The notes under the pieces are model-generated. The model was not told the origin of the DNA. It worked only from the letters and a program-made list of their open reading frames with translations, and did no database searches. From Gemmatimonadales bacterium (GTDB lineage: Bacteria; Gemmatimonadota; Gemmatimonadetes; Gemmatimonadales; GWC2-71-9), in assembly GCA_035699205.1 (NCBI GenBank), contig DASSBA010000153.1:4096-68095 (forward strand): 64,000 nucleotides of DNA, written 5' to 3'. A program made the position numbers and the translations under genes. Positions 44,065 to 64,000 of this stretch are shown in pieces. The number at the start of each line of letters is the position of its first letter. The first letter of the stretch is position 1.

Positions 44065-45216
44065 TCAGCCGGCGCTCGCGCCCCGGTAGTCGAGCGCGGC
44101 CGCCTCGGGTCGCCTGGTGGCGGCCAGCACGTCGTGGTAAACCGCCAGCGTTTTCGCCACGCTGTGGCCCAGGGTGAAGAGCTCTTCGTAGCGGGTGCGG
44201 CCGTTGGCTCCCAATCGGGCCCGCAGCGCGGGATCCGCGAGCAGGCGCCCCAGGCGGTCGCGGAGCGATTCCGCGTCCCGGCGGGGCACGAGATAGCCGG
44301 TTTCGCCCTCCTGAATGGCCTCCGACACTCCGCCGACCGACGAAGCCACCACCGGCAAGCCCGCCCGCATCGCCTCGAGGATGCTCAACGGAAATCCTTC
44401 CCAGTTGGTCGCCAGCAGGGCCACTTGTGCCTCGGCCAGAAGCTGCCCCACATCCATCCGCTGCCCCAGGAGGCGCACGCGGGATGCGAGCCCGAGTGAG
44501 CCCGCCAGCGCCTTCATCTGACCGACGAGCGGCCCATCCCCGATGAGGTCCAGCTCCCAGGGCTGGTCCTGGAGGCCCGCGAGTGCCCGAAGCAGCGTCG
44601 GATGATCCTTCTGGGCACCGAAGCGAGCAACCATCACGAGCCGGGGCGGCGTGCGGCTCGGAACGGCCCGCAGATCCGGGGATACGTCGGCGATGCCGTT
44701 GTGCACCGTGATCAGACGATCCGGGCCGGCGATTCGGGCATCCAGTGCGAGCTGGCGGTCGAACTCCGATACGGTGATGATCTTGCCGGCGAGCGGTGCG
44801 ACCGAGCGCTCGAGGCGACGGTACACCGCGGCCTGCCATGCCGGGATGCCGGGCGTGAAGGTCCAGCCGTGGGCCGTATACACCACGGGGATGCGCAGCG
44901 CCCGGCCGACCAGGCGGGCCAGGATGCCCGCCTTCGCGGAATGCGCGTGGATCAGGTCGGGGCGCGACTCCGCAACCACCGCATGAATCTCCCGCAATGC
45001 CAGCAGATCACCTATCGGCGCGATCGGGACGGTGAGGTGCCGCAGGACCCTTGTCGGCACTCCCTGCTCGCGCAACTGATCGACGAAGGGCCCGTCGCCA
45101 CCGGTGAGCACGGTGGCCGAATGGTCTCCCGCGCGAACCGAGACGGCGAGATCCCGCACGTGGATCTGGGCGCCCCCGATGGGGTCCGCGCGCGTTACGA
45201 CGTAGCAGATCCTCAC
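44065..45216 (-). CDS. Glycosyltransferase family 4
   Basis: GTG 45216 gives VRICYVVTRADPIGGAQIHVRDLA. Also IHAHSAKAGILARL and NWEGFPLSILEAMRAGLPVVASSVGGVSEAI. An alternative GTG lies at 45231. Confidence 0.85.
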   Translation of the reverse strand: MRICYVVTRADPIGGAQIHVRDLAVSVRAGDHSATVLTGGDGPFVDQLREQGVPTRVLRHLTVPIAPIGDLLALREIHAVVAESRPDLIHAHSAKAGILARLVGRALRIPVVYTAHGWTFTPGIPAWQAAVYRRLERSVAPLAGKIITVSEFDRQLALDARIAGPDRLITVHNGIADVSPDLRAVPSRTPPRLVMVARFGAQKDHPTLLRALAGLQDQPWELDLIGDGPLVGQMKALAGSLGLASRVRLLGQRMDVGQLLAEAQVALLATNWEGFPLSILEAMRAGLPVVASSVGGVSEAIQEGETGYLVPRRDAESLRDRLGRLLADPALRARLGANGRTRYEELFTLGHSVAKTLAVYHDVLAATRRPEAAALDYRGASAG

Positions 45217-45394
45217 GTCATCCACCTCCACTGGTCGGGGCCACGGACTCCGTCGGATTCGGGAGCAGCCGGGGCTCGACCGGCGAGAATAATACCACGG
45301 GCTGCCCAGCCCCCGGACCGGGACGGCCCCAAGCAGTGTAACGGGACTGTCCGATGTCAGAAAATGTACGGCACCGACATTTGGGGCTGGCGGC

Positions 45395-45480
45395 TTGACA
45401 GTCGTAATTGCATAAACATCAACATGATACAAAATCCATCCGATGTAATCCGACAAGCAAACGTTCGATTATTGCGCATT
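45395..45480. promoter_or_regulatory. AT-rich patch in the divergent intergenic region (candidate promoters for GT4 and the EPS operon)
   Basis: The local sequence cttgacagtcgtaattgcataaacatcaacatgatacaaaatccatccgatgtaatccgacaagcaaacgttcgattattgcgcatt is far below the window GC. It contains TTGACA at 45395-45400. I could not pair it with a convincing -10. Confidence 0.3.
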
Positions 45481-45585
45481 GCACCGGGTCCCGGAATTCC
45501 CTAGATACCAACTGCCCAAGGGTGGCGGCGGAGCTGGGGAACGGTTGGGCGTCACCGCAGATCCAGTGACGAAAGGGCCGGAGCA

Positions 45586-47385
45586 ATGACGTACACCTTC
45601 AAGCTTGCGCGCAGACTGGCGGTCTCGCGACACTTCAGCGTGCTCACCACCCTCGTGTTGTTGGCAGCGTGCGCGGGAGAGACCACGGCGCCCGATGCCG
45701 GCTCTTCCGCCCCTGCGACGTCCCCCATAGCCCTCCAGGTGTTGCCCCGCTCGGTAGTGATCGAGACCAATCAGCGCGTGCGATTCTGGGGCCAGACGCG
45801 CACATCGAGGGGCGACCGCACCCCGCTTCCGGTTGCGTGGCACGCGACCGGCGGCACCATCAATCCCGATGGCAGCTTCCTCTCGACCACCTCCGGCACG
45901 TTCAAAGTGATCGGGCGCGGCCGCGGGCTGAACCAGATCGACACGTCCGTCGTGACGGTGGTCTCGCCGCCGACGAATCTGGCACGAATCGAAGTCACCC
46001 CCGATTCCACCACGCTGAATCCGGGCGCCACCCGGACCTTCGGCGTGATCGGCTATCGAAAGAACGGCTCGACGGTGAGCGTCGGCGTGAACTGGTCGGC
46101 CACCGGCGGCGACGTGGATGCGGCCGGTGACTACACGGCGGATTCGGCCACCGGCAGTTACCGCGTCATCGCCACCACTACGGGGGGCACGTTTGCCGAT
46201 ACTGCCATTGTCCGCATCAACCAGCCGGCGCCAACCCTCACGCAGCTCGTGATGTACCCGGCCAGCACGTCGCTCGAGGCGGGCGCCTCACAGCGGTTCG
46301 GCGCCTACGGACGCAACTCCGCGGGCGACAGCGTCGCCGTCGCCGTCAAGTTCAGCGCGACCGGTGGTACCATAAGCAGCACCGGGCTGTACACGGCCGG
46401 CCAGGCGTCGGGAACGTTCCGTGTCACGGCCGCGGTGGACGCCATTGCGGATTCGGCCACGGTCCTCGTGAAGGCGGTCGCCGCGGCCCCGACGCCTGCG
46501 CTCACGGGCTCGACCCTGGCCTTTGGCCCCTTCGGCCTGTTCAACACCGCGGGGCTCACCAATCCGGACGCCGCGTTCGCCACCCTGGGGCAGGACAGCT
46601 ACAACGCTTCGAACGTCGTCACCCGAATCGAGGCGGCCCGCGCGCGCGGCATTCACCTGATCCTCGCCCTGACCGGCGGCAAGCACGAGAACTACCTGAG
46701 CACGATCGACGGGGTGTACCAGTTCGACCGCGACAAGTGGGAGGCCAAGCTCCAGACCTTCAACACCACGAGCATCCGGCAGGCCATCGCCGCGGGTGTG
46801 GCCGATGGGACGATCATCGGCGCGAGTGTGATGGACGAGCCGAACGTCTCGGGCGCCGGCGACGGCAACACGTGGGGACCCCCGGGCACGATGACCAAGG
46901 CCCGGGTGGACTCGCTGTGCGGCGACTTCAAGGCCCTCTTCCCCACACTCCCGGCCGGGGTGGGACACCGCTGGGACGTCTTCGAGCCGACCAAGTCCTA
47001 CCGGGTCTGCGACTTCGTCACCTCACAGTATTCTACGCGGATCGGCAGTGTCACCAACTGGCGGGATGGTGGTCTTGCCATGGCCCGGCGCGACGGTCAC
47101 GAGATCATGTTCAGCATGAACCTTCTCAACGGCGGCACCCAGGACAGGGACGGGACGTGGGACTGCGCGGGAACCGGCGGTCGCGGGCTGCTGAGCCCCA
47201 ACTGCCGTATGACCGCCGCCCAGATTGCCGAGTATGGCCTGGCGCTCGGCCCCGCGGGATGTGGGGGGCTGTTGATGTGGGAGTATGACGACTCATTCAT
47301 GGCCAACGCCGATAATCAGAGGGCATTCAAGCAGATCGGCGACCGGCTGTCGACATTGCCGTCGAGACCCTGCCGAAGGCACTAG
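45586..47385 (+). CDS. Lipoprotein with three Big_2-like Ig repeats and a C-terminal putative glycanase-like domain
   Basis: GGAG lies 4 nt before the ATG. The lipobox is LVLLAAC. There are three roughly 85-aa repeats (V.P.S..L..G....F...G....G......V.WSATGG.I...G.YTA...GT.RV.A). The C-terminal half contains ASVMDEPN, an NEP-like motif. Confidence 0.8.
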   Translation: MTYTFKLARRLAVSRHFSVLTTLVLLAACAGETTAPDAGSSAPATSPIALQVLPRSVVIETNQRVRFWGQTRTSRGDRTPLPVAWHATGGTINPDGSFLSTTSGTFKVIGRGRGLNQIDTSVVTVVSPPTNLARIEVTPDSTTLNPGATRTFGVIGYRKNGSTVSVGVNWSATGGDVDAAGDYTADSATGSYRVIATTTGGTFADTAIVRINQPAPTLTQLVMYPASTSLEAGASQRFGAYGRNSAGDSVAVAVKFSATGGTISSTGLYTAGQASGTFRVTAAVDAIADSATVLVKAVAAAPTPALTGSTLAFGPFGLFNTAGLTNPDAAFATLGQDSYNASNVVTRIEAARARGIHLILALTGGKHENYLSTIDGVYQFDRDKWEAKLQTFNTTSIRQAIAAGVADGTIIGASVMDEPNVSGAGDGNTWGPPGTMTKARVDSLCGDFKALFPTLPAGVGHRWDVFEPTKSYRVCDFVTSQYSTRIGSVTNWRDGGLAMARRDGHEIMFSMNLLNGGTQDRDGTWDCAGTGGRGLLSPNCRMTAAQIAEYGLALGPAGCGGLLMWEYDDSFMANADNQRAFKQIGDRLSTLPSRPCRRH

Positions 47386-47402
47386 GCAGACCGGCGACCC
47401 GG

Positions 47403-47432
47403 CGACCGGGAGGGGTTCCCCCCTTCCGGTCG
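47403..47432 (+). terminator. GC-rich hairpin downstream of the lipoprotein gene (candidate intrinsic terminator)
   Basis: CGACCGGGAGGGG, loop TT, then a C-run plus CCCCTTCCGGTCG (one G-T pair). It starts 18 nt after the TAG at 47385. No clear U-tract. Confidence 0.4.
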
Positions 47433-47709
47433 CTTCGCATTCGCGGTGTGTCGGCCGTGCCACAGTGTTGCATCGTCAGCTTCCAACTCCAGGCCCCCTC
47501 ACGGCGCCGGCGAACCGCCGGCGCGCGCCATCGGGGCGCGCCGCGACCGCGATCCGAGGTGCCGTTCGGATCTTACTATGGTAAATTGTCTTACTCGGCC
47601 ACCCGGGCGAGTGAGTGGCCCGCTCGGGGCATGGATCGTGCTCCGAGGTTCCGGGATTTCGGCGAGGATCTGGATTCCTCGCTTCCACCTTCATCACGCC
47701 TCGAGGTGT

Positions 47710-48363
47710 ATGCGAGTTCTGGCTCCCGTTCCGCTGCTGGTCGCGTGTGTCCTGCATTGGTCTCCGGCCGTCGCTCAGCAGCAGCCTCGTGGGCAAGCGG
47801 AGCAGTGGGTGCTGACGCCTGGAGACTCGGTCCGGGTCGTGGTGTGGCGGAAGCCCGAGTTCAGCGGAGATTTCGTGGTGGCTCCGGACAACACCATCAC
47901 CCATCCCCTGTTTCGCGCGGTCAAGGTCGGCGGCATTCCGTTCGCCACCGCCGAGGCCAATCTCCGGGCCTTTCTTTCCCGCTTCGAGGAGAACCCCCAG
48001 TTCGTGCTGGAACCGCTCATCCGGGTGTCCGTGTCTGGTGAGGTGACCCGGCCGCAGGTGTTCGCCACGCGCCCGGAGACTACCATCGGCGAGGCCGTGG
48101 CGCGGGCCGGGGGCACGACCGAGGACGGCGCCCGCAACCGCGTCCGCGTGCTCCGTTTCGAGCCCGGCGGACAGCAGGACCAGGTCACGGTCAACCTTTC
48201 CGACCCCAACAGCACGAGTGCCACGCTGCCGGTGCGCTCGGGGGATCAGATCATCGTCGATCGCCGGAAGTCGTTCTTCAGGGACGTTCTCCAGCCCGCG
48301 CTGGTGGTCATCGGCTCGATCGCCTCCCTCGGCCTGCTCATCGACCGCGTGAGCCGAAGGTAG
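47710..48363 (+). CDS. wza: Polysaccharide export protein (Wza/EpsA-like, Poly_export plus SLBB)
   Basis: Internal ATG 47710 gives the signal peptide MRVLAPVPLLVACVLHWSPAVAQQ. Also LTPGDSVRVVVW, FVVAPDNTITHPL, VSVSGEVTRP and SGDQIIV. Confidence 0.8.
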   Translation: MRVLAPVPLLVACVLHWSPAVAQQQPRGQAEQWVLTPGDSVRVVVWRKPEFSGDFVVAPDNTITHPLFRAVKVGGIPFATAEANLRAFLSRFEENPQFVLEPLIRVSVSGEVTRPQVFATRPETTIGEAVARAGGTTEDGARNRVRVLRFEPGGQQDQVTVNLSDPNSTSATLPVRSGDQIIVDRRKSFFRDVLQPALVVIGSIASLGLLIDRVSRR

Positions 48364-50777
48364 TGACCATGCCGAATCCGACGCCCAACCATCGGCTGCT
48401 CGCCGGCAGCACCGAGCCTCCGATGCGGCCGATCGAGTCGGCCCCGGCCGAGGACTCCGTCTCCTTCCGCCAGATCCTGACCGTCCTGCGCCGGCGCTAC
48501 CAGTTGATCCTGGCGATGACGCTGATCGGCGCGAGCATCGGGCTGTTTCTGGCCTCGCGCTCGCCGGCGACGTATCGGGCGGCGGCGATGCTCAGGCTGG
48601 CGGGCGAGCGGCAGACCCTCACCGGGGACGAAGAGGAGGCGCCCGGGCTGGGGAAGACCGCCGACCCGCTCCTGTCCATCATCGAGCTCCTGAAGAGCCG
48701 GACCGTCGCCCGGGTGGTCGTGGATACGCTGGGCCTGCAGCTCCAGAGTCGGACCCCCGAGTTTCCGGTCTCGAGTCTCGCCCAGGTGCACGTGGATCCC
48801 CGGGCCGCCGGCGACTCCGTGCAGCTCGTCTTCCACCAGAACACCGTCGAGGCGCGTCGGGCCGACCGGACGGTGACCGCGCCGTATGGGCCGCTCATCA
48901 ACCTCGGCGTGGTGCAGTTTGCCGTGCGCGCCCGTCCCGCGGTCGATGCCGCCACCCTGGGCATCATCGGCCAGGAGCAGGCGATCGATGGACTCCTGGG
49001 GGGCCTGCTGGTGACCCGTCGGGAAATGACCGACGTCATCGACGTCGCGTATTTCTCGAGCGAGCCCGCCGCCGCTCAGCGCATCGTCAACGCGACGGTG
49101 CAGGCCTTCCAGTCGCTCAACGTTCAGTGGGCGCGCGAGCGTTCACGGCGCCGCCGCGAATTCCTCGCCGAGCAGCTCGCCCAGACGGACAGCATGCTCG
49201 AGCGGGCGCAGGCCGAGCTCAGCTCCTTCCGCAGCCGCCAGCAGCTGGCCAGCAGCCATGACAAGCTCGCGGCGGAGCAGTCGGCCGTGCTCGCGCTCGA
49301 TACCCGCTCGGCCGAGCTCGAGGCCGACCGCGAGACCTTCGGTGCCCTGCAGCAGCAGCTCAAGTCGGGCGACGACGCCGCCCGCGCGGAGGCGCTCCGG
49401 ACCCTGGCCACGTCCCCGGCGATGACCGACAATCCGGCGGTCGGCAGCCTCTACCATCAGCTCCTCGATTACCAGGACCGCCTCGACTCGATGACGACCG
49501 GACCCTGGAAGGCTGCGCCCACCAACCCGGACGTGATTCAGCTGAAGGCGCTGGCGAAATCCACCCAGGACAAGCTCGTCGGGGCCGTGAGTGGACACGT
49601 GAAGTCGATCGACGCCCGGATCGCGTCCCTGGGCACGCTCCGCCGCAAGACCGGCGCGTCCATGGAAGTCCTCCCCGCCATGGCCGAGGAGGAGATGCGG
49701 CTGAGCCGCCGGGCGGATGCGCTGGCCAGCATGGGCGACGAGCTTCGCAAGGACTTTCAGAAGGCCCGCATGGCGGAGGAAGTCGAGGCCGGCGATGTGG
49801 ACGTGGTCGATCTGGCGGACGTGCCCTACGCGCCGCTCCTGAGCGCCTCGGCGGTGAAGCTGGCCCTGGGTCTCGTGCTGGGGCTGATCCTCGGCCTGAT
49901 CCTCGCCTACGTGCTCGAGGCGCTCAATACCTCGATCCGCCGGCCGGAGGATCTCGAGGCGGTGCTGCACGTGCCCGGCCTGGCCGTCATCCCGAGAATC
50001 ACCGGCGGCTCGTCCAACGGACGCTCGCGGCTGCGGGCCCTGCTCGGGTCCCCCAAGCCCGTCCGCTCGGACACCGGGGCGCTCATGTCGGGCGGCCAGA
50101 CCTTCTCCATCGGCATCGAAGCCTTCCGCAATCTGCGGACGAGCCTGATCTGGTCGGACGGGGGGGAGGCGCTGAAGACCCTGGTGGTCACCAGCGCGGC
50201 GCCCGGGGAGGGCAAGACGCTCACCGCCGCCAACCTCGCGGTCACGCTGGCGTACGATGGCCTTCGCGTGCTGCTCGTCGACTGCGACATTCGCCGGCCC
50301 CGCGTGCACGGGCTCTTCCGCATGCCGCGCTCGCCGGGGTTGATGGAGTTGCTGACCACGGCGCTTCACCCGTCCGGTGATCCGGTCTCGTCACCGGACG
50401 CCATCCGGGAGAGCTCGATCGCGGGGCTCTCGGTACTACCCTGCGGCGCGCTGCCCTCCAACGCCGCCAACCTGCTCAGCAGCACCCGCATGCGGGTGCT
50501 GCTGCAGGAACTGCGGGAGCAGTACGACATCATCGTGCTCGACACCCCGCCGGTGCTCGCCACGGCCGATGCCGGTATCGTGGCCTCGCTGACCGACGGG
50601 GTGCTGCTCGTCGTGCGCGCCGGCACCACCGACCGGAACGCGGCGCAGCGCGCCTGCCAGCAACTGGCCAATGTCGGCGCCCGGGTGGTCGGGACCGTGC
50701 TGAACGATCCCGGCGGGCAGGTCGCCAAGGAAGGCGACTACTACTATCCGTACGACTACGCCGCCGAGGAGCAGTGA
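48363..50777 (+). CDS. wzc: Polysaccharide co-polymerase / BY-family tyrosine autokinase (Wzc/GumC-like fusion)
   Basis: N-terminal Wzz-like region with a coiled coil. P-loop VVTSAAPGEGKTLTAANLA. Also LLVDCDIRRP and IVLDTPP. The tyrosine-rich tail is EGDYYYPYDYAAEEQ. The start is GTG 48363 or ATG 48369. Confidence 0.88.
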   Translation: MTMPNPTPNHRLLAGSTEPPMRPIESAPAEDSVSFRQILTVLRRRYQLILAMTLIGASIGLFLASRSPATYRAAAMLRLAGERQTLTGDEEEAPGLGKTADPLLSIIELLKSRTVARVVVDTLGLQLQSRTPEFPVSSLAQVHVDPRAAGDSVQLVFHQNTVEARRADRTVTAPYGPLINLGVVQFAVRARPAVDAATLGIIGQEQAIDGLLGGLLVTRREMTDVIDVAYFSSEPAAAQRIVNATVQAFQSLNVQWARERSRRRREFLAEQLAQTDSMLERAQAELSSFRSRQQLASSHDKLAAEQSAVLALDTRSAELEADRETFGALQQQLKSGDDAARAEALRTLATSPAMTDNPAVGSLYHQLLDYQDRLDSMTTGPWKAAPTNPDVIQLKALAKSTQDKLVGAVSGHVKSIDARIASLGTLRRKTGASMEVLPAMAEEEMRLSRRADALASMGDELRKDFQKARMAEEVEAGDVDVVDLADVPYAPLLSASAVKLALGLVLGLILGLILAYVLEALNTSIRRPEDLEAVLHVPGLAVIPRITGGSSNGRSRLRALLGSPKPVRSDTGALMSGGQTFSIGIEAFRNLRTSLIWSDGGEALKTLVVTSAAPGEGKTLTAANLAVTLAYDGLRVLLVDCDIRRPRVHGLFRMPRSPGLMELLTTALHPSGDPVSSPDAIRESSIAGLSVLPCGALPSNAANLLSSTRMRVLLQELREQYDIIVLDTPPVLATADAGIVASLTDGVLLVVRAGTTDRNAAQRACQQLANVGARVVGTVLNDPGGQVAKEGDYYYPYDYAAEEQ

Positions 50778-50833
50778 GCCATCCTCCCGCGGCGCCGGCC
50801 GAACTCCCGTAGACCAGGTAGCGCGGTGCGCCA

Positions 50834-50864
50834 GGCAGCCCGGCCGCTCGAGGCGGCCGCTGCC
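50834..50864 (+). terminator. GC-rich hairpin after wzc-like (candidate terminator or processing site)
   Basis: GGCAGC-CC-GGCCGC, loop TCGAG, then GCGGCC-GCTGCC. This gives 12 bp with a 2-nt bulge. Confidence 0.35.
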
Positions 50865-50917
50865 CCGGCGCGACGCGTGAACTCTCGCTGACGCTCACGG
50901 AGGAACTTCCCGCCAGC

Positions 50918-52753
50918 ATGTCGACTTCCATCGCCCCTCCCGAACCGCACGTGGCCGCTCCGCCGGGTTCGCAGCGGATGAACATCGTCATCGTGGGCCA
51001 CGTGGACCACGGCAAGAGCACGGTCATCGGCCGGCTGCTGGCCGATACCCACTCGCTCCCCGACGGGAAGCTCGAGCAGGTCCGGGCCGACTGCGAGCTC
51101 AACTCCAAGCCGTTCGAGTACGCGTTTCTGCTCGACGCGCTCAAGGACGAGCAGGCTCAGGGCATCACCATCGACGCCGCCCGCGTGTTCTTCCGGAGCA
51201 GCCTGCGTCCGTATCTGATCCTCGACGCGCCCGGGCACATCGAGTTCCTGAAGAACATGATCACCGGCGCCGCCCGGGCGGAGGCGGCGCTGCTGGTGAT
51301 CGACGCGGCGGAGGGGGTGCAGGAGAACTCCCGGCGCCACGGCTACATGGTCTCGATGCTCGGCATCCACCAGCTGGCGGTCGTGGTGAACAAGATGGAC
51401 CTGGTGGGCTGGGACGAGGCGGTCTATGACCGCATCGTCCGCGAGTACAGCGCCTTCCTCGAGCAGGTCGGCATCCGGCCCTCGTGCTTCATCCCGGTAT
51501 CCGGCCGCGGGGGCGACAACATCGCCGATCGCTCGAGCAATCTCTCCTGGTACACGGGACCCACGGTCCTCGACGCGCTGGACGCCTTCCGGAGCGAGCC
51601 GGCCCCGGTCGAACAGCGGTTCCGGATGCCGGTCCAGGACGTCTACAAGTTCACCAAGCAGGGTGACGACCGGCGCATCGTCGCGGGCACGATCGATTCG
51701 GGCACGGTGCGGGTGGGCGACGACGTGATCTTCTACCCCTCGGGCAAGAAAAGCCGGGTCAAGAGCATCGAGGCGTTCAACCGGCCGGTCCACACCCGTG
51801 CGGAGGCGGGCTGGGCCGTGGGGTTCACGCTCCAGGAGCAGATCTACATCACCCGTGGCGAGATCGCCACGCTGGAGGCCGAGCCGCGCCCGCAGGTCAC
51901 CACCCGCCTGCGCGTCAGCCTCTTCTGGCTGGGCAGGGAGCCGATGGTCAAGCGGAAGGAGTACCTGCTCAAGCTGGGCACCGCACGGGTGACCGCCCGG
52001 CTCGAGGAAGTGCTCCGGGTCATGGACGCCTCGAGTCTCGAAACGGCGCAGCAGCGCAACGCCGTCCAGCGTCACGATGTAGCCGAGTGCGTGCTGAAGC
52101 TCGACCGCGCGATCGCCTGCGACCTCGCCGCGGACGTCCCGTCCACCAGCCGGTTCGTGATCGTCGACGACTTCGAGATCCGGGGCGGCGGCATCGTCCG
52201 CGAGGCGCTCCCCGACCGGCAGACCGCGGTGCGGGACCGGGTGCTGCTCCGGAACTACAAATGGGAGCCGAGCATCATCCAGCCGGAGCACCGGGCGGAG
52301 AAGTACAATCAGAAGGCCGCCCTCATCCTGGTCACCGGCGAGCACGAGAGCGACCGGAAGGGCATCGCCAAGGCGCTCGAGGGGAAGCTGTTCGAGGACG
52401 GCAAGGTGGTGTACTTCCTGGGCATCGGCAGCGTGCTCTACGGCGTGGATGCCGACATCGAACGCAAGCCGGAGAACCGGCTGGAACACATGCGCCGCCT
52501 GGCCGAGGTGGCGAACCTCATGCTCGATGCGGGCATCATCCTCGTGGTCGCGGCCGCGGAGCTCACCCAGGACGACCTCGAGGTCATCAAGACCGCCGTC
52601 CCGCCCGACTGGATCGAGACGATCTGGGCTGGCGACACCATCACCACCGATCTCGCCTGCGACCTGCAGCTCCCGGGGGGGGCCGTGCCCGAGGCGGTGG
52701 ACCGCCTCAAGGCCCACCTGCAGGACAAGGGGATCATCTTCCGCCCATGGTGA
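50918..52753 (+). CDS. cysN: Sulfate adenylyltransferase subunit 1 (CysN GTPase) fused to a C-terminal APS-kinase-like domain that lacks a P-loop
   Basis: GTPase motifs are [15 protein letters not shown] and NKMD. The C-terminal roughly 165 aa read [35 protein letters not shown]...[25 protein letters not shown], which is collinear with CysC. The expected GLSGSGKST is replaced by [10 protein letters not shown]. Confidence 0.85.
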
Positions 52754-56891: not shown

Positions 56892-58300
56892 TCGAGGCGG
56901 CGCTGCGGCACTCCGGTGCACAGCCGGCCCTGATCGCGCCCGCACAGGGCGTCCGCCTCACGTACGCCGAGCTCCGGACGCAGGTGGACGATGTCGCGGC
57001 GCGCCTGCACGGACTCCTGCCGGAGCGCCGGTTGGTGTTCCTGGCACCCGGACCGGATGTCCAGGCGGTGCTGTTGTATCTCGGCTGTCTGCGTGCCGGC
57101 CTGCCCGTGTGCCTGGCCGAGCCGCTCCCCGATCCGTTGGCGCGCCTGTCCCGCACCTACGGGCCCGCACTCGTGCTGGGCCCCGAAACCATGCGGCTGC
57201 CCGAAGGCGGGACGGTTGTCGCCTCGCCCGTTCCGGGCTACGCCGCCGTGCTGGCCGACCCTGCCGGCGAGCAGGCGCTCCACCCGGAGCTGGCGCTGCT
57301 CCTGACCACTTCGGGCTCCACCGGGAGCCCCAAGCTGGTTCGCCTGACGGCGCGCAACCTGGAATCGAACGCCACCGCGATCGCCACCTACCTCGCACTG
57401 GGACCGGCGGAGCGGGCGGTGCAGAGTCTCCCGATGCACTACAGCTACGGACTCTCCGTCTTGAACTCGCATCTGGTGGCGGGGGGCTGCGTCGTGCTGA
57501 CGCCGCACTCGTTCATCCGGCCGGAGTTCTGGCGGGAGGTGGACGAGCAGCGAGCCACCTCGTTCGCCGGGGTGCCCTACATGTATGAGACGCTGCACCG
57601 CCTGCGGTTCGACCCGGCGCGCCATCCGTCGCTGCGGACGCTGACGCAGGCGGGCGGGGCGCTGCGCCGGGACTTGATCGCGCATTTTCACGCCGCGGCC
57701 ACCGCTGCCGGCGCCCGGCTCGTGGTCATGTACGGCCAGACCGAGGCCACCGCGCGCATCGCCTACGTGCCGCCGGAGCGACTGGGTGAGAAGCTGGGCG
57801 CGATCGGCGTCCCGATTCCGGGAGGCCGGTTGAGACTTGAACCGGCCGAGGGCGCTGGCGGCGGTGCGACGGAGCTCGTGTACGAGGGCGAAAACGTGAT
57901 GCTGGGCTACGCCGAGGGCCCGGCCGACCTGGCCCTCGGCGACGTCCAGCACCGACGGCTGCGCACCGGCGACCTCGGCACAATGGACGCGGATGGCTAC
58001 TTCAGCGTCGTCGGGCGCCTGAAGCGGTTCGCCAAGCTGTTCGGCCGGCGCGTGAGCCTGGAAGACGTCGAGCGGGAGCTGGAGTCGGTCTTCCCGGTGC
58101 GCGCCATCGCCACGGAAGCCGGCGGCCGCCTGCGACTGCACGTCGTGGTGGACGGCGTGCTCCGCGATGGCCTGCTCGTGGCCCACCTGGCGCGCTTTCT
58201 CGCCGTGCCCCCATCCGCGATCGGGATCCACCGCGTGGCCGAGCTGCCGCTCACCACCACCGGGAAGAAGGACTACAGGGCGGTGGAGGCTGCGCCGTGA
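56888..58300 (+). CDS. AMP-dependent synthetase/ligase (ANL superfamily acyl-CoA or acyl-ACP ligase)
   Basis: GTG 56888 forms a GTGA overlap and gives VIEAALRHSG. Also LLTTSGSTGSPKLV (the AMP motif), YGQTEA, TGDLG and a C-terminal GKKDY. Confidence 0.85.
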   Translation: MIEAALRHSGAQPALIAPAQGVRLTYAELRTQVDDVAARLHGLLPERRLVFLAPGPDVQAVLLYLGCLRAGLPVCLAEPLPDPLARLSRTYGPALVLGPETMRLPEGGTVVASPVPGYAAVLADPAGEQALHPELALLLTTSGSTGSPKLVRLTARNLESNATAIATYLALGPAERAVQSLPMHYSYGLSVLNSHLVAGGCVVLTPHSFIRPEFWREVDEQRATSFAGVPYMYETLHRLRFDPARHPSLRTLTQAGGALRRDLIAHFHAAATAAGARLVVMYGQTEATARIAYVPPERLGEKLGAIGVPIPGGRLRLEPAEGAGGGATELVYEGENVMLGYAEGPADLALGDVQHRRLRTGDLGTMDADGYFSVVGRLKRFAKLFGRRVSLEDVERELESVFPVRAIATEAGGRLRLHVVVDGVLRDGLLVAHLARFLAVPPSAIGIHRVAELPLTTTGKKDYRAVEAAP

Positions 58301-59388
58301 CGAGCCCGGCCCGCGCATTGATGGAGCTGCCGCCCTTCGGGCTGAGCCAGGCCGAGAAGCGGGCCCGGCTGCTGCCCATGCTGCGGGAGCTCACGGCTCA
58401 CCACGCCGCCCGCTGCGAGACCTATCGAAATGTCCTGGACCGCGTCTTCGGTGGCGCCGACCAGCTCCGGATCGAGCGGATCGAGGACGTCCCGTACCTG
58501 CCCGTGATGCTGTTCAAGTCGCATCCGCTGTCGAGCGTGCCGGATTCCGAGGTGGTCAAGGTGCTCACGTCCAGCGGCACCACGGGGCAGCAGCCGAGTC
58601 GGGTGTTCCTGGACGCCGAGACCGCGTCGGTCCAGTCAGCGGTGCTGGTGAAGGTGGCGCAGCACTTCCTGGGCAGGGAGCGGCTGCCGATGGTAATCGT
58701 GGACCACCCCGGGGCGGTCCGGGACCGGCGCCATCACTCGGCGCGCGGCGCGGGGATTCTGGGCATGATGCAGTTCGGCCATCGCCCGTTCTATGCATTG
58801 GGCGACGACATGAGTCTGAACGAGGACGGGCTGCGCGCATACCTGGAGGGCGCGGCGGGCCGGCGCACGCTGCTGTTCGGCTTCACCTTCATGGTGTGGC
58901 AGTATCTCGTACGCGCGCTGGAGCGTGCCGGGCGCCGGCTGGAGCTGCCGGGCGGAGTCCTGGTGCATTCGGGAGGCTGGAAGAAGCTGCAGGACGAGGC
59001 CGTGGATCCGGCCACGTTCCGCGACCGGGTGCGGGCCGCGACCGGCGTGGAGCAGGTGATCAACTTCTACGGCATGGTCGAACAGGTCGGCGGGGTGTAC
59101 TTCGAGAATCCGATCCATTACCTGCAGGCACCCATCTACTCCGAAGTGATCGTGCGCGACCCGGTGACCCTGGTGCCGGTCCCCGACGGGCAGCCGGGGC
59201 TCGTTCAGGTCCTGAGCTGCCTGCCGACCAGTTACCCGGGCCATTCGCTGCTGACCGAAGATCTGGGTGTGATCCGGGGCGCCGACGCGGAGGGCACCGG
59301 CATGGGCGGCCGGTACTTCGAGATCCTGGGTCGGGCGCCGAAGGCCGAGCTGCGCGGATGCAGCGACACGTTCGCGGCGAGGGTATGA
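58297..59388 (+). CDS. LuxE-like acyl-protein synthetase (PaaK/LuxE-type adenylating enzyme)
   Basis: GTGA overlap with the ligase gene. 363 aa. Motifs are YLPVMLFK, VLTSSGTTGQQPSRVFLD, LVHSGGWKKL and INFYGMVEQ. Its size and its pairing with a LuxC-like gene support the call. Confidence 0.7.
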   Translation: MTSPARALMELPPFGLSQAEKRARLLPMLRELTAHHAARCETYRNVLDRVFGGADQLRIERIEDVPYLPVMLFKSHPLSSVPDSEVVKVLTSSGTTGQQPSRVFLDAETASVQSAVLVKVAQHFLGRERLPMVIVDHPGAVRDRRHHSARGAGILGMMQFGHRPFYALGDDMSLNEDGLRAYLEGAAGRRTLLFGFTFMVWQYLVRALERAGRRLELPGGVLVHSGGWKKLQDEAVDPATFRDRVRAATGVEQVINFYGMVEQVGGVYFENPIHYLQAPIYSEVIVRDPVTLVPVPDGQPGLVQVLSCLPTSYPGHSLLTEDLGVIRGADAEGTGMGGRYFEILGRAPKAELRGCSDTFAARV

Positions 59389-60647
59389 AGGGCGAGCCGC
59401 GCCCCTGGAGCACCGTGGCCGGGCGGGTCCGCGTGCTGGCCCCGGTGGGGCACGCAGCCGATCTGGCGGCCTTTCTTGACGGCACGCGCGACGTCCACGC
59501 CGAGCCGTTTTCCATGGCCCGGATGGATGCTCTGGCGCGGCTCTCGGCGGCGTTGCTGGCCGACCCCGTCCTCCGACGGGACCCGGCCAGCGTGTCGGTG
59601 GCGTACTGGCTGCGCCGGGCCCGGCTCGCCCGGCTGGCCGAGGAGCACGCCCGCCGCACCGCGGCGGAGCCGGACGTGCTGCGGGTGCCCGTGGGCCGGG
59701 TGCTTCACATGGCGCCCTCCAACGTGGACACGCTGTTCGTGTACTCGTGGGCGCTGGCGTTCCTGTGCGGCAATGCCAGCGTGGTGCGCCTGTCCCAGGA
59801 GTCGAGCGTCGTGGTCGACGCCCTGCTGCGCGTCATCTGCTCGGTGGCCGCCGAGGACGGCGAGCTGGCTGCATCGAACCGGTTCGTGACCTACGGGCAC
59901 GACGATGCGATCACCGCGGCGCTGTCGGCCTGGTGCGCCCACCGGGTGATCTGGGGCGGCGATGATGCCGTCGCCGCCATCCGGCCGTTGCCGCTGCCGT
60001 CGCACGCCAGCGAGCGGGTGTTCGGCAGCAAGTACTCGTTCGCGGTGATCGACGCCGACCGCTACCACGCCGCGCCGGCCGACGAGCGGGAGCGGGTCGC
60101 GTCCGGCTTCTTCAACGACCTGTTCTGGTTCGATCAGATGGCGTGCTCGTCGCCGCACGTGGTATTCTGGATCGGCGCCCGCGAGGCAGCCGAGACCGCC
60201 GCGCACGAATTCGAGCGCGCCCTTCAGGCCGAGGTGTCGCGCCGTGGCTTCGCGCCCCCGGTCTCGAGCGCGGTGCACCGGCGCAACTTCGCGTTCGACC
60301 TGGCGGCTTCGGCGGACGTGCGCGTGGTGCTCGAGCACCCCGGCTTCGTGGGGATCCACGTCCGCGACCCGGCGGCCCTCGACAAGGACATCTGCGGCGG
60401 AGGTCTGTTCCGGCACGCCACGGTCACGCGGCTGTCGGATGTGCTGGCGTTCATCGACGAGCGCGACCAGACGCTCACCCACTGGGGGATCGCGGGCGAG
60501 GCCCTCCGCAGCTTCACGGCCGCCGCCGGCGCGCGCGGACTCGATCGGGTCGTGCCGATCGGCGAAGCGCTGGCCTTCGACGTCGTATGGGACGGCTTCC
60601 ACCTGATCGACGACGTGCTTCGCCGCGTGCGGGTGCGGTGCTCGTGA
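59385..60647 (+). CDS. LuxC-like acyl-CoA/acyl-protein reductase (ALDH superfamily)
   Basis: ATGA overlap with the LuxE-like gene. Motifs are HMAPSNVDTLFVYSWALAFLCGNASVVRLS and FDQMACSSPHVVFW, the candidate catalytic Cys region. Confidence 0.7.
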   Translation: MKGEPRPWSTVAGRVRVLAPVGHAADLAAFLDGTRDVHAEPFSMARMDALARLSAALLADPVLRRDPASVSVAYWLRRARLARLAEEHARRTAAEPDVLRVPVGRVLHMAPSNVDTLFVYSWALAFLCGNASVVRLSQESSVVVDALLRVICSVAAEDGELAASNRFVTYGHDDAITAALSAWCAHRVIWGGDDAVAAIRPLPLPSHASERVFGSKYSFAVIDADRYHAAPADERERVASGFFNDLFWFDQMACSSPHVVFWIGAREAAETAAHEFERALQAEVSRRGFAPPVSSAVHRRNFAFDLAASADVRVVLEHPGFVGIHVRDPAALDKDICGGGLFRHATVTRLSDVLAFIDERDQTLTHWGIAGEALRSFTAAAGARGLDRVVPIGEALAFDVVWDGFHLIDDVLRRVRVRCS

Positions 60648-60672
60648 TCCCCGGTGCCGCCGGGGCTCGCCG

Positions 60673-61530
60673 GTGAGACTTCGGCTCTCTCCCCTGTCGG
60701 CCGCGACCGGGGAGGCATTGCCGGAGATCGCCGGACTGCTCGAGCGCGTGTTCCCCCGCGCTCGACCGTGGGCCCCCGATCTGGAGTGGCAGTATCTGCG
60801 GAATCCGGCGGGCGTCACCCGCTACGTCAACGGCTACGCGGAAACGGGCGAACTCATCGCCCATTACGCGGTGCAGCCGATGGTGCCGCTGGCCGAGCCG
60901 CCGTTCGCGTTCGCGGGTACCTATTTCCCGCTGAACACGGCCGTGCATCCGGCTGCCCGGGTGCCCGGGCTGATGGTGGCGACCGCGCGGGCGCTGTTCC
61001 GGGAGCTGGAGCGGCTGGGCCCGGCCCTGGTGTTGGGAGTCGCCAACGAGAATTCGTTCCCGGCCTACGTGCGAATGCTGGGCTTTCGGTCATTGGGCAG
61101 GCTGTCGCTCACCCTGCATGCCCCGGGGACGCTCCCCGCCGTCGTGGTGCCCAGGGCGCTGGGACACGACGCGGCACACCTGGCCTGGCGCACTCGGCGG
61201 CCGGGCGTGGCCGCCTACGGCGAGCCCGGCAGGGGCGCGCTCACGGTCCGGCTGCGGCATCGCGGCGTGGGGCTCGATGCCGTGCTCTCGACGGGCCTGC
61301 CGGGGGACCTGATCGCCGGCCTCGGGCTGGCCCGGCCCGCCCGGTGGGCTCCGAGACTCTACGCCGCCTTCGGCGGGCGGGTCGGGGGAGGGCTGCCCGT
61401 GCCCGGACGACTGCGACCAAGCCCCCTCGAGTACGTCATGCGCGTGCTGGGCGACCCGGCCCTGGCCGAGCCGGTCGCCCGACACCTTGGGGCGCGCCGG
61501 TTCGAGTTCCTGGATTTCGACGTGGTATGA
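60673..61530 (+). CDS. GNAT/FemAB-like acyltransferase
   Basis: GTG start, 285 aa. Contains VHPAARVPGLMVATARALF and LVLGVANENSFPAYVRMLGFRSLG, which is GNAT-like. Confidence 0.6.
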   Translation: MRLRLSPLSAATGEALPEIAGLLERVFPRARPWAPDLEWQYLRNPAGVTRYVNGYAETGELIAHYAVQPMVPLAEPPFAFAGTYFPLNTAVHPAARVPGLMVATARALFRELERLGPALVLGVANENSFPAYVRMLGFRSLGRLSLTLHAPGTLPAVVVPRALGHDAAHLAWRTRRPGVAAYGEPGRGALTVRLRHRGVGLDAVLSTGLPGDLIAGLGLARPARWAPRLYAAFGGRVGGGLPVPGRLRPSPLEYVMRVLGDPALAEPVARHLGARRFEFLDFDVV

Positions 61531-61687
61531 GCCGGGCACGGAGGGCTGCCCTCCCGGGCTCGCGCTTTGGTAGATTGCCCGTTGCCGGCGGCCAGGTCAA
61601 TTGTGTGTGGAGGGCACGAATTGTGCACGCCGGTCGCGGGATCCCCAAACCCCGCCGGCGCCTCGAACCGGGAGCCATGAACCGCTG

Positions 61688-62602
61688 ATGCAGATCACCA
61701 GACCGCTCATCATCGTGGGCACCGGCCGGTGCGGGTCGACCGTCTTCCACCGACTGCTCGCCCAGCATCCGCGAGTCATGTGGCTGTCGGGCTTCGCTGA
61801 GCGCTATCCCGACAAACCGGCATGGAACCGGTGGGCGGTTACCGCGACGGGTACCCCGCTGCTTCACCCGCTGCTCGGCGAGAAGATCCGGCCCGCGGAG
61901 GCGTACAGCTTCTGGGACCGATACGCGTATGGGTTTTCCGAGCCGTGCCGCGACCTCGGCCGGGCCGACGTGACTCCTCGTGTCAAGCGGCAGCTGCGGA
62001 GCGCGATCGAGCGGATGCTCACCCGGGCGCGCGACCGTCTGCTCGTCAAGATCACCGGGTGGCCGCGGATCGGCTTCCTCAACGGGGTCTTCGAGGACGC
62101 CGGGTTCGTGCACATCATTCGCGACGGCCGCGCCGTCGCCAACTCGCTGCTGCACGTCAATTTCTGGCGTGGCTGGCAGGGGCCGCAGGGTTGGCGCGCG
62201 GGTCTCCTCTCGCCCGAAGACCAGGCCGCCTGGGAGGCCTACGACCGTTCGTTCGTCGCCCTCGCGGGGATCGAGTGGCGCATCCAGATGCGGGCGATCG
62301 AAGCCGCCCGGCGCGCGCTCGACCCCGGGCTCTTCCTCGAAATCCGATACGAGGAATTCTGCCAGGCGCCGCAGGAAACCTTCCGGCGCGTCCTGGAGTT
62401 CGCGGAGCTGCCCCGCTCCCCCGGCTTCGAACGGCGTATCGAGTCGGCGTCCATCAGAGACATGAGCAACCGGTGGCGCGACGATCTCACCCCCGAGCAG
62501 CAGGTCGTGCTGGACGATCTGTTGCGCGAGGATCTGCGGCGCTATGGCTATGAGCCGTCCGACAAGGACCAGAGAGTCGCGGAAGCCGCCGCCGCCAGAT
62601 GA
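61688..62602 (+). CDS. Sulfotransferase family protein (Sulfotransfer_3-like)
   Basis: Internal ATG 61688 gives MQITRPLIIVGTGRCGSTVFHRLL, a P-loop-like 5-prime PSB motif. Also VHIIRDGRAVANSLL (3-prime PB-like). Confidence 0.8.
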   Translation: MQITRPLIIVGTGRCGSTVFHRLLAQHPRVMWLSGFAERYPDKPAWNRWAVTATGTPLLHPLLGEKIRPAEAYSFWDRYAYGFSEPCRDLGRADVTPRVKRQLRSAIERMLTRARDRLLVKITGWPRIGFLNGVFEDAGFVHIIRDGRAVANSLLHVNFWRGWQGPQGWRAGLLSPEDQAAWEAYDRSFVALAGIEWRIQMRAIEAARRALDPGLFLEIRYEEFCQAPQETFRRVLEFAELPRSPGFERRIESASIRDMSNRWRDDLTPEQQVVLDDLLREDLRRYGYEPSDKDQRVAEAAAAR

Positions 62603-62734
62603 ATCCGCCGGACCTGCGTCGCGCCGAGGCGGGGAGCGGTGTCTCCCCGTCCCGAGGCTCGCTGCACCCCGTATGACTCCGACTCCCGCAGCGGGCAACG
62701 GATCCACCGTGACACCGGCCGCGGGGAGTATCCG

Positions 62735-64000
62735 GTGACGCCCGCGGAAGCACGCCCGAACTCGCCCCGCGGACTCACGCAGCGGGCGCTTGGAGGCATG
62801 CTCTGGACCTTCAGCGGGACGGGCGTGCAGGCCGTCGTTCAGCTGATCGTGCTGATGGCGCTGGGTCGGCTGCTCACCCCGGCGGACTTCGGGCTGATGG
62901 GCGCGGCCGCGGTCGTGATCGCGCTCTCTCAGATCGTCTCGCAGGTCGGGGTCGGGCCGGCGATCGTTCAGCGCAAGGAGCTGAACCTCAAGCACGTGCG
63001 CGTGGCCTTCACCATCTCCGGCGTCCTGGGGTTCGTTCTCGGGGCCGCGGTCTGGTTCAGTGCACCGGCGCTCGCTGCGTTCTACCGCATTCCGGCCGTC
63101 GAGCCCGTGCTTCGGGGGGTGGCGTTCCTGTTTCCCGTGGACGGCCTGAACACGGTGGGCGAGTCGCTCCTCACGCGACAGCTCCGTTTTCGCCTGTTCG
63201 TCGCGCTGGACCTCGGCAGCTACGTCCTGGGATATGCCTGCGTGGGCGTCGTAATGGCCTGGCAGGGATACGGCGTATGGGCGCTGGTCGGAGCCAGCCT
63301 GTCCCAGGTGGCGCTGCGCACGATCGCCATGTACCTCGCCACGCGGCACGCCGTGCGGCCGAGCCTGGACCTGCGAGCGAGCCGAGAGCTGCTCAGCTTC
63401 GGCTTCGGCCATTCGCTGGCCCAGGTCGGCTCGGTGCTCTCCCAGCAGGGCGACAATCTCGTGGTCGGGCGGTGGCTCGGCCCGACCGCGCTGGGTGTCT
63501 ACGGGCGGGCCTACGGCCTGATGGTCATGCCGGCGACCGTGTTCGGCCGAATCGTCAACCGGGTCCTGTTCCCGGTGATGTCGCAGGTCCAGGACGAGCG
63601 TCATCGGCTTGCCGGCGGATACGAACGCGCCCAGGCGATCGTGGCCCTGGTGGCGCTTCCAGTGAGCGCGTTCCTGTGGGTCGTGGCCCCGGAGTTCATC
63701 CCGGTGCTTCTCGGGCCCGCCTGGACCGCCGCCGTCCTGCCGTTCCGGCTGTTCACGATCAGCCTGCTGTTCAGGATGAGCAGCAAGATCAGCGACGCCT
63801 GCACCAAGGCCGCCGGGGCGGTGTACGCGCGGGCATTGTTGCAGGGCGCGTACGCCGCCCTCGTGCTGGTGGGAGCGATCATCGGGCAGCGCTGGGGTGT
63901 CGCCGGCGTCGCGGTGGCGGTCTCGATCGCGATGGGGATCAACTGGCTGACGATGGCCGAGTTGAGCCGTCGGGTGACCGGCCTGTCCTGGTCCCGCTTC
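62735..64000 (+). CDS. wzx: Polysaccharide flippase (Wzx / polysaccharide biosynthesis protein family); C-terminus runs off the window
   Basis: My own translation from GTG 62735 gives LWTFSGTGVQAVVQLIVLMALGRLLTPADFGLMGAAAVVIAL and later LLSFGFGHSLAQVGSVLSQQGDNLVVGRWLGPTALGVYGRAY. It is polytopic and open to position 64000 (422 codons). ATG 62798 is an alternative start. It is absent from the track because there is no stop inside the window. Confidence 0.75.
   Translation, partial: MTPAEARPNSPRGLTQRALGGMLWTFSGTGVQAVVQLIVLMALGRLLTPADFGLMGAAAVVIALSQIVSQVGVGPAIVQRKELNLKHVRVAFTISGVLGFVLGAAVWFSAPALAAFYRIPAVEPVLRGVAFLFPVDGLNTVGESLLTRQLRFRLFVALDLGSYVLGYACVGVVMAWQGYGVWALVGASLSQVALRTIAMYLATRHAVRPSLDLRASRELLSFGFGHSLAQVGSVLSQQGDNLVVGRWLGPTALGVYGRAYGLMVMPATVFGRIVNRVLFPVMSQVQDERHRLAGGYERAQAIVALVALPVSAFLWVVAPEFIPVLLGPAWTAAVLPFRLFTISLLFRMSSKISDACTKAAGAVYARALLQGAYAALVLVGAIIGQRWGVAGVAVAVSIAMGINWLTMAELSRRVTGLSWSRF

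Follow-up and report, generated by a model that had tools for sequence, protein, structure and literature searches.

Capsules that have been chemically proven to be sulfated are known from Vibrio sp. KMM 8419 and Cobetia marina KMM 1449, and genes for synthesis of 3'-phosphoadenosine 5'-phosphosulfate (PAPS) together with sulfotransferases in one cluster were regarded by the authors as a hallmark of sulfated polysaccharide synthesis (PMC11641403, PMC11766843). Sulfated polysaccharides are still called rare in bacteria, or confined to cyanobacteria (PMC8205485, PMC13390465), and gene cluster and chemistry have both been described for a few marine Gammaproteobacteria only. Here we analysed a stretch of 64,000 nt (the window, G+C approximately 70%) from a Gemmatimonadales bacterium (GWC2-71-9; assembly GCA_035699205.1, contig DASSBA010000153.1, forward-strand positions 4,096-68,095). 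From position 44065 to its end, the window carries a Wzx/Wzy-dependent, Wza/Wzc-exported locus that most likely builds a multiply sulfated exopolysaccharide (EPS) or capsule with its own supply of the sulfate donor.

The Vibrio cluster contains cysN, cysD and cysC, and that of Cobetia cysN/C, cysD, cysQ and a sulfate permease gene (PMC11641403, PMC11766843). As in both, PAPS genes and several sulfotransferase genes lie inside a polysaccharide cluster here, sulfation being predicted from the genes. Both of these clusters specify Kps-type ABC-transporter capsules of marine Gammaproteobacteria with 70-80 genes in several regions, whereas the locus described here is of the Wzx/Wzy-Wza/Wzc type and belongs to soil Gemmatimonadales; no KpsM/T/E/D-type family was matched among its proteins in Pfam and NCBIfam scans. 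Unlike in Vibrio and Cobetia, the genes follow the order cysN-cysQ-cysC-cysD with apparent translational coupling, CysN carries a seemingly dead kinase domain beside a separate CysC, and uptake is assigned to an ABC importer and a porin instead of a permease. The synechan xss cluster of Synechocystis PCC 6803 is likewise a Wzx/Wzy EPS cluster with in-cluster sulfotransferases, of distinct subfamilies, but term searches of the xss papers found no mention of PAPS-synthesis genes, unlike the locus here (PMC8205485, PMC13125312). The xss cluster is also plasmid-borne and under cyanobacteria-specific XssQ/R/S regulation, and no homologues of those regulators were noted here. The wps-1 cluster of the soil bacterium Actinoplanes missouriensis combines a Wzx/Wzy system with a methyltransferase and a pair of sulfotransferases, of which one is of the heparan-sulfate type, and a 2026 paper predicts sulfation of its product; in contrast to the present case, its host is a Gram-positive actinomycete, PAPS is unmentioned in the paper and there is no Wza (PMC13390465). 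A literature search on Gemmatimonadetes, sulfotransferase and polysaccharide found no relevant paper.

Extra or dedicated PAPS synthesis coupled to a specific sulfotransferase is also familiar from NodP/NodQ/NodH in rhizobia, RaxP/RaxQ/RaxST in Xanthomonas, and CysDNC with Stf in mycobacteria, where the acceptors are a lipo-chitooligosaccharide, a peptide tyrosine, and trehalose and lipids, respectively. These systems have non-polymer acceptors and an active CysN-CysC fusion, whereas the predicted acceptor here is an exported polymer and the CysN tail is apparently dead. The original prediction, made from the letters of the window, did not recognise the arrangement as a described one. The phylum is indeed new. 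So are the pseudo-kinase CysN, the presence of three to four or more sulfotransferases in one bank, some of them of heparan-sulfate type, and the joining of a Wza/Wzc/Wzx/Wzy pathway to both an ABC importer and a coupled cysN-Q-C-D block. On the other hand, the principle of PAPS genes with sulfotransferases in a polysaccharide cluster is not new, as it was already published for Vibrio and Cobetia (PMC11641403, PMC11766843).

A sulfate-activation block lies within the polysaccharide export locus

Genes were called via third-position GC and frame and then tested with Pfam and NCBIfam; for comparison, window proteins were mapped onto 27 loci (given below as L numbers), and genes were also called in several of them. 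A co-directional string of genes from 45586 to 64000 had been proposed (lipoprotein, Wza, Wzc, cys genes, deacetylase, acyl module, GNAT, sulfotransferase and Wzx), and every one of these elements was found at or near its proposed position. The genes for export and assembly are:

44065-45456, minus strand: GT4 glycosyltransferase (Pfam Glycos_transf_1 and Glyco_trans_4_4), divergent, marking the left edge of the locus
45586-47385, plus strand: lipoprotein of 599 aa with lipobox LLAAC and a Big_2 domain, heading the export operon
47710-48363 (open reading frame (ORF) open from 47446), plus strand: Wza-like outer-membrane export protein (Poly_export 49 bits, SLBB 48 bits)
48363-50777, plus strand: Wzc co-polymerase and BY (bacterial tyrosine) autokinase (Wzz, GNVR, and AAA_31 with the P-loop)
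62639-64000, running past the window end, plus strand: Wzx flippase (Polysacc_synt_3, 261 bits against a cut-off of 23)

The ATP sulfurylase and adenosine 5'-phosphosulfate (APS) kinase genes (cysN, cysC and cysD) sit between wzc and the modification genes, together with cysQ, whose product removes 3'-phosphoadenosine 5'-phosphate (PAP):

50918-52753, plus strand: CysN, GTPase subunit of ATP sulfurylase with a degenerate APS-kinase-like domain (GTP_EFTU and partial APS_kinase)
52747-53508, plus strand: CysQ, 3'(2'),5'-bisphosphate nucleotidase (TIGR01331, 275 against 229)
53505-54020, plus strand: CysC, APS kinase (APS_kinase 179 bits; TIGR00455, 188 against 139)
54020-54913, plus strand: CysD, small subunit of ATP sulfurylase (NF003587, 344 against 195), in TGATG overlap with cysC

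The placement of cysN-cysQ-cysC-cysD between wzc and the deacetylase gene, with three start/stop overlaps, was confirmed by reading the sequence directly: ATGGTGA at 52747-52753, where the start of cysQ overlaps the end of cysN by 7 nt, GTGA at 53505-53508, and TGATG at 54018-54022. The four genes are thus predicted to be translationally coupled. Most junctions outside the cys block are overlaps or gaps of 25-160 nt, and the gap between the lipoprotein and Wza genes is 324 nt if Wza starts at 47710. Promoter, terminator and Rfam scans of the locus and the window gave no signal exceeding chance; neither cysN nor the sulfotransferase gene ST1 described below is preceded by a recognisable riboswitch or leader, and no intergenic terminator-like site was seen across 45.6-64 kb.

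CysN scored just under the cut-off of TIGR02034 (330 against 336), and its GTPase motifs are intact. In the C-terminal approximately 170 aa (approximately 52238-52753), alignment to the structure 3uie places GEHESDRKG where the P-loop GLSGSGKST is expected and GIG in place of DGD, with a 13-residue segment and LGIG at the sites of the catalytic motifs. A bifunctional CysN/CysC of the NodQ type is not indicated, since NF004035 gave 430 against 715 and both the P-loop GxxGxGK[ST] and DGD are absent. Judged from these substitutions, the kinase-like tail of CysN is catalytically dead, which would account for the separate, fully canonical CysC with intact motifs GLSGSGKST and DGD. The dead domain is 92-96% identical across 10 related loci and therefore appears to be under strong selection. 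Among representatives of 50%-identity clusters, most of the nearest full-length relatives of CysN (43-64% identity) are without both kinase motifs, as are 42 of the 72 full-length representatives; canonical bifunctional CysNC proteins occur mainly among more distant relatives. Because most of the nearest representative clusters likewise lack both motifs, a CysN pseudokinase paired with a free-standing CysC appears to constitute a distinct subfamily, in which the tail may serve as a scaffold, regulator or allosteric domain.

Carbohydrate-type sulfotransferases accompany the locus

Two sulfotransferase genes lie in the window:

61688-62602, plus strand: ST1, Sulfotransfer_3 (PF13469, 80 bits), with motifs like those of protein-tyrosine sulfotransferase (TPST)
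33668-34657, plus strand: ST3, Sulfotransfer_1 (PF00685), heparan-sulfate-sulfotransferase-like, with motifs GAPKCGTT and RNPADVVYS

A third, ST2, was found on a metagenome contig (L001) that matches the window at 99.97% identity along 7.6 kb and carries the locus past the window end. There, Wzx is complete at 552 aa and is followed by ST2 (286 aa; motifs GAQRSGTT and RNPVDRALS), a GT4 enzyme, a Wzy_C polymerase and a GT2 enzyme. The two window proteins had been said to carry PAPS-binding motifs of the 5'-phosphosulfate-binding (5'-PSB) and 3'-phosphate-binding (3'-PB) types, and these are present. In ST1 they read GTGRCGST (5'-PSB) and RDGRAVANS (3'-PB), and 118 of 120 homologues retain both patterns (GTGRCGST or GSGRCGST; RDGR....S). 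ST2 matched animal heparan-sulfate glucosamine 3-O-sulfotransferases (3-OST) at E 3e-28 and the sulfotransferase domain of NDST at E 4e-21, while ST3 matched the bacterial sulfotransferase structure 3rnl at E 1.5e-34 and heparan-sulfate 3-OST at E 4e-7. By these matches, ST2 and ST3 are clearly of the carbohydrate-sulfotransferase type. None of ST1-ST3 has a membrane segment or signal peptide, and they are therefore predicted to act in the cytoplasm, where PAPS is. In the Wzx/Wzy context, this fits sulfation of a lipid-linked repeat unit in the cytoplasm before it is flipped by Wzx. A fourth sulfotransferase that occurs in relatives (STx) is absent from the window. A methyltransferase at 34670-35578 was considered as an orthologue of the one adjoining the sulfotransferases in relatives; it is not orthologous, and a joint move with ST3 is not claimed.

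The arrangement recurs in related Gemmatimonadales

A database search with ST1 gave 2241 matches at E 1e-5 or better, of which the best 120 clusters (at least 69% identity) came for the most part from collections of environmental metagenomes. The 19 matches in species-representative genomes included 17 in metagenome-assembled genomes (MAGs) labelled Gemmatimonadales or Gemmatimonadaceae, the remaining two being one labelled Chloroflexota and a distant one from Polyangiaceae. The Chloroflexota-labelled MAG (L020, DASXTD010000589.1; ST1 identity 78%) has the Gemmatimonadales-type arrangement of porin, Sbp, CysTW and sulfotransferase, and its contig is probably mis-binned.

The cys block was sought in Wza/Wzc/Wzx loci of other genomes, as had been suggested, and it recurs in Gemmatimonadales relatives. 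The recurrent order in the upstream half is GT4 (minus strand), Wza, Wzc, CysN, CysQ, CysC, CysD, followed optionally by an acyl cassette and optionally by Rrf2, porin, Sbp and CysTWA; the order then continues with STx, an ST3-like protein, ST1, Wzx, ST2, GT4, Wzy, GT2 and GT4. Each of the 12 related loci covering at least approximately 8 kb upstream of ST1 contains cys genes of this block there, wzc is directly upstream of cysN in seven related loci (11 nt apart in L003), and the relatives have three to four or more sulfotransferases each. The position of the cys block is kept regardless of divergence in other proteins of the locus (Wzc 56-76% and Wzy 48-71% identity). Since the arrangement is recurrent in independent Gemmatimonadales MAGs, it is not a chance juxtaposition, and the conserved position of the cys block upstream of the sulfotransferase bank despite divergence of Wzc and Wzy strengthens the sulfated-glycan reading. 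On an 874-kb contig, where L025 and L019 overlap, all elements including acyl cassette and importer form one string of approximately 34 kb with just two short genes on the opposite strand. In L003, on a 3.7-Mb contig, a sulfite-oxidase-like molybdoenzyme (6590-7699; Oxidored_molyb and Mo-co_dimer) lies between cysD and the sulfotransferases, in the slot taken by the acyl cassette or the sulfate importer in other loci.

In the window, the genes for sulfate uptake are located separately:

21959-27821, minus strand: sulfate uptake operon with Rrf2 regulator, O/P-type porin, Sbp, CysT, CysW and CysA (NCBIfam; Porin_O_P; Rrf2)

A sulfate uptake operon at 21959-27178 had been predicted. Its four transporter components passed the NCBIfam cut-offs (Sbp 537 against 288, CysT 431 against 246, CysW 415 against 329, CysA 380 against 343), but the Rrf2 and O/P-type porin genes upstream of the importer genes extend the operon to approximately 27821. 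In relatives, the importer is inside the cluster, beside the sulfotransferases, in L005, L023 and L025-L027 and partly so in L010, L019 and L020, and ST3 orthologues (58-69% identity) adjoin ST1 in most related loci covering that region. The window is therefore taken to be a rearranged version, and its separate sulfate operon and ST3 are best read as displaced parts of one system. On the best reading of these gene orders, the cluster ancestrally included sulfate import beside activation by CysDN and CysC and by-product removal by CysQ.

These data also bear on the possibility that the cys genes and the importer are ordinary sulfur-assimilation genes that merely lie inside a polysaccharide locus, with the sulfotransferases using a general PAPS pool or with an incidental link between the two sets of genes. 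In favour of this possibility, regulators such as the CymR/IscR-like Rrf2 protein of the importer typically control sulfur metabolism in general, the 64 kb showed no further cysDN or sat gene, and cysNC, cysD and cysC were counted among the assimilatory genes when more than 400 Gemmatimonadota MAGs were surveyed (PMC10581226). However, every informative relative has the genes embedded in this way, notwithstanding much divergence and local rearrangement, the importer lies within the cluster and not apart from it wherever it is covered in a related locus, and CysC and CysQ are required for the PAPS route only. In the same survey, the complete reductive pathway was present in only 18.9% of soil MAGs (PMC10581226), a figure compatible with a sulfation role although no proof of it. 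Moreover, if the genes were present in a sole copy, they would nevertheless provide PAPS to the sulfotransferases beside them; the supply would then be shared instead of dedicated, with the product unchanged. We consider plain assimilation improbable and favor supply of sulfate to a glycan, either dedicated or shared with cysteine synthesis. The proposal that the locus supplies activated sulfate for an exported glycan is thus supported by the conserved cys block, the in-cluster importer of relatives, the homology of ST2, and the presence of Wzy and glycosyltransferases.

Wzx/Wzy assembly and Wza/Wzc export

Wzx, Wzy, a class 2a polysaccharide co-polymerase (PCP-2a) and an outer-membrane polysaccharide export (OPX) protein, Wza, were all identified. 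Wzc reached 158 bits on TIGR01007, whose cut-off is 108. As in PCP-2a proteins, it combines a BY-kinase domain with a C-terminal Tyr cluster, in the Tyr-rich tail EGDYYYPYDY. Wza, whose probable start is ATG 47710, has a signal peptide and the lipobox LLVAC. At approximately 217 aa it is unusually short, comprising a single copy each of Poly_export and SLBB and, at its C-terminus, a hydrophobic segment; Wza of E. coli has approximately 379 aa. An orthologue of the GT4 enzyme at 44065-45456 lies upstream of wza in L016 and L021. The original prediction had called for extension of the contig in search of a priming transferase, Wzy or an exosortase. Through L001, a Wzy_C protein (422 aa) was found 1.6 kb past the window end, while an exosortase was not found and a priming transferase was seen in relatives only, where a Bac_transf gene begins approximately 8-9 kb downstream of the end of wzx (L003 and L005). 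Wzy, the further glycosyltransferases and, in relatives, the Bac_transf transferase complete the Wzx/Wzy pathway.

A Wza protein with a Wzc BY-kinase is characteristic of capsule and EPS export (group 1 capsules, EPS systems), not of O-antigen ligation. This is relevant to whether the product might instead be another sulfated glycoconjugate, such as O-antigen or lipopolysaccharide, a glycolipid or a protein-linked glycan. Wzy_C (PF04932) is common to O-antigen polymerases and ligases, a PMT_2 glycosyltransferase lies at the right edge of L003, and the acyl cassette described below is known from flagellin glycosylation islands of Aeromonas (PMC7874193). Because genes for Wza and for a Tyr-tailed Wzc BY-kinase stand right at the head of the operon, such a glycoconjugate seems an improbable product compared with free EPS or capsule.

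The lipoprotein as a whole received no family assignment. Its AlphaFold model (predicted local distance difference test (pLDDT) score 81) consists of three Ig-like domains and a C-terminal alpha/beta domain of approximately 290 aa. Foldseek matched mainly the Ig domains, the sole long match being a weak one to an Ig-domain-containing GH10 xylanase. In the C-terminal domain, an MDEP motif is invariant across homologues, as are several Cys residues. The MDEP motif and the one weak GH10 match hint at a possible glycoside-hydrolase role for this domain, and the lipoprotein is possibly a periplasmic polysaccharide-processing protein or enzyme. The idea that it is the beta-barrel partner of an OPX protein lacking D4, forming a composite translocon, was ruled out because the model shows Ig and alpha/beta domains and no barrel, and because the short Wza has its own C-terminal hydrophobic segment.

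An optional acyl-modification cassette

Between cysD and ST1, the locus of the window contains a deacetylase gene followed by genes for acyl modification:

55016-55855, plus strand: polysaccharide deacetylase, Polysacc_deac_1 and DUF3473 (TIGR03006, 346 against 276), the first cassette gene
55919-56164, plus strand: acyl carrier protein (ACP; PP-binding 30 bits against a cut-off of 20.8), absent from the original prediction
56154-56891, plus strand: FabG-like short-chain dehydrogenase/reductase (SDR; adh_short_C2, 217 bits)
56888-58300, plus strand: AMP-forming acyl ligase (AMP-binding, 153 bits)
58297-59388, plus strand: LuxE-like acyl-protein synthetase (PF04443, 163 bits)
59385-60647, plus strand: LuxC-like acyl-CoA reductase (PF05893, 101 bits)
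60673-61530, plus strand: acyltransferase of tandem-GNAT fold, 285 aa (AlphaFold pLDDT 88; Foldseek)

The 285-aa protein had no match in Pfam or NCBIfam, and a profile search of PDB sequences was also empty. Foldseek matched its model to Eis, N-myristoyltransferase and 2hv2 (E 3e-10, TM 0.55), so that its earlier labelling as a GNAT protein was right at the level of the fold. It probably transfers the acyl product of the cassette. Genes for ACP, 3-oxoacyl-ACP reductase, AMP-synthetase, LuxE and LuxC occur in identical order in the polar-flagellin glycosylation islands of Aeromonas (PMC7874193), and the ACP-SDR-AMP-ligase-LuxE-LuxC cassette appears to be a recurrent module of glycan loci. The cassette was found in some related loci (L006, L007 and L025-L027) and is considered optional because most related loci are without it. 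On the simplest reading, deacetylase, cassette and GNAT protein probably swap the N-acetyl group of an amino sugar for another acyl group.

Because TIGR03006 is an equivalog of the XrtA system, XrtA/PEP-CTERM loci were also compared. The GT4, Wza and Wzc proteins matched XrtA-associated models below threshold, and every XrtA-associated model other than TIGR03006 was far below its cut-off; scores against cut-offs were 65/180 for TIGR03027, 140/231 for TIGR03018, 77/279 for TIGR03007, 150/592 for TIGR03098 and 138/409 for TIGR03088. No exosortase domain was found among the called genes of the window, L001, L003, L005 and L025-L027 (flanks of approximately 10 kb). With the deacetylase model alone above its cut-off and no exosortase seen in the window or these flanks, membership in the XrtA/PEP-CTERM class was rejected as unlikely.

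A further alternative is that acceptors other than glycans are used by some or even all of the sulfotransferases. ST1 would then be a tyrosine sulfotransferase for a protein, or the enzymes would sulfate a fatty alcohol or acyl product of the LuxC/LuxE cassette. TPST is the best PDB match of ST1, which has an RDGR-type 3'-PB motif; JGI names of ST1 homologues refer to menaquinone sulfotransferase; and the aldehydes made by LuxC-type reductases could be turned by an SDR into an alcohol open to sulfation. However, the match to TPST is a weak one of E 7e-5 over 60 residues, and the cassette is absent from most related loci, whereas the sulfotransferases, Wzx, Wzy and glycosyltransferases are constant. 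With ST2 and ST3 of carbohydrate-sulfotransferase type as well, we regard non-glycan acceptors as very improbable and retain the repeat unit of the exported polysaccharide as the probable acceptor. A more specific version of the polysaccharide reading is that the soil Gemmatimonadales, taken as a lineage, make a heavily sulfated, glycosaminoglycan-like polymer, in which glucosamine would be sulfated by ST2 and ST3 and the deacetylase would provide an NDST-like logic of deacetylation followed by modification. This version is unlikely.

Proposed route and its implications

In the proposed route, the porin and the Sbp-CysTWA importer would bring in sulfate, CysD and CysN would make APS, and the free-standing CysC would phosphorylate APS to PAPS, with the CysN tail probably acting as a scaffold or regulator. 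The repeat unit, linked to undecaprenyl diphosphate, would be assembled by GT4 and GT2 enzymes and sulfated from PAPS by three soluble cytoplasmic sulfotransferases (at least four in relatives), and the inhibitory by-product PAP would be hydrolysed by CysQ. In the source genome, the acyl cassette would probably exchange the N-acetyl group of an amino sugar for a different acyl group. The sulfated unit would then be flipped by Wzx, polymerised by Wzy and exported by Wzc and Wza. Gene identities, motifs and synteny in this scheme are observed, whereas we infer from them which acceptor is sulfated and at what stage, that the genes are co-expressed, and what the product is.

Several observations weigh against this scheme. 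In the window, 17-27 kb separate the locus from the importer and ST3 on its left, and no priming phosphoglycosyl transferase was found in the window or on L001. The closest solved relative of ST1 is a protein-tyrosine sulfotransferase, at the weak similarity given above. Every carrier found is an uncultured MAG, and the cys genes may also, or solely, serve cysteine synthesis.

Conservation of the locus across Gemmatimonadales suggests that sulfated EPS may be a standard trait of a cosmopolitan soil phylum. If this is true, the assignment of cysNC, cysD and cysC to assimilatory sulfate reduction in surveys of Gemmatimonadota would call for a new interpretation (PMC10581226), and a microbial origin could be proposed for part of the soil ester-sulfate pool. 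More speculatively, a strongly anionic matrix that binds water and cations might help to explain the success of the phylum in dry soils. The locus would also offer engineers a compact natural design that unites an importer, PAPS synthesis, PAP removal, heparan-sulfate-type sulfotransferases and Wzx/Wzy; engineered hosts are stated to be limited by poor PAPS supply (PMC13125312). Were the unlikely glycosaminoglycan-like version to hold, an abundant and scarcely cultured phylum would be a major unrecognised source of soil ester-sulfate and a natural bacterial chassis for heparin-like polysaccharides.

Other genes in the window

The genes between the importer or ST3 and the locus are unrelated to it: glycerol-3-phosphate-dehydrogenase-like, a hybrid histidine kinase, two CLC channels, SbcCD and a GNAT protein. 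The hybrid histidine kinase (31716-33662; two PAS domains and a receiver domain) ends directly upstream of ST3 and may be a regulator. Upstream of it, an 838-aa ORF at 29054-31570 has good coding statistics and no Pfam or NCBIfam match. Two tandem genes for CLC-type anion channels with C-terminal CBS pairs occupy 35663-39200 on the minus strand; a 626-aa plus-strand ORF at 35732-37612 was rejected as a gene, being merely their antisense shadow. An SbcD/Mre11-like nuclease gene and then an SbcC/Rad50-like ATPase gene lie at 39520-43118. In the SbcC region, codon statistics are as good on one strand as on the other (40119-43196, minus; 40239-43118, plus), with domain matches for the plus product only. 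A tRNA-Ser(GGA) called by ARAGORN at 39615-39708 lies within the SbcD ORF, has no Rfam tRNA match at the gathering threshold and is probably a false positive. An ABC exporter is located at 3352-5121, and a second, separate glycan-synthesis cluster at 5974-20737. The latter contains four to five CgeB-like Glyco_trans_1_2 glycosyltransferases (one at 5974-7098 and three or four within 11821-16266), an NTP-transferase, methyltransferases, a GFO/IDH/MocA oxidoreductase, a Zn-dehydrogenase and two NAD-dependent sugar epimerases/dehydratases.

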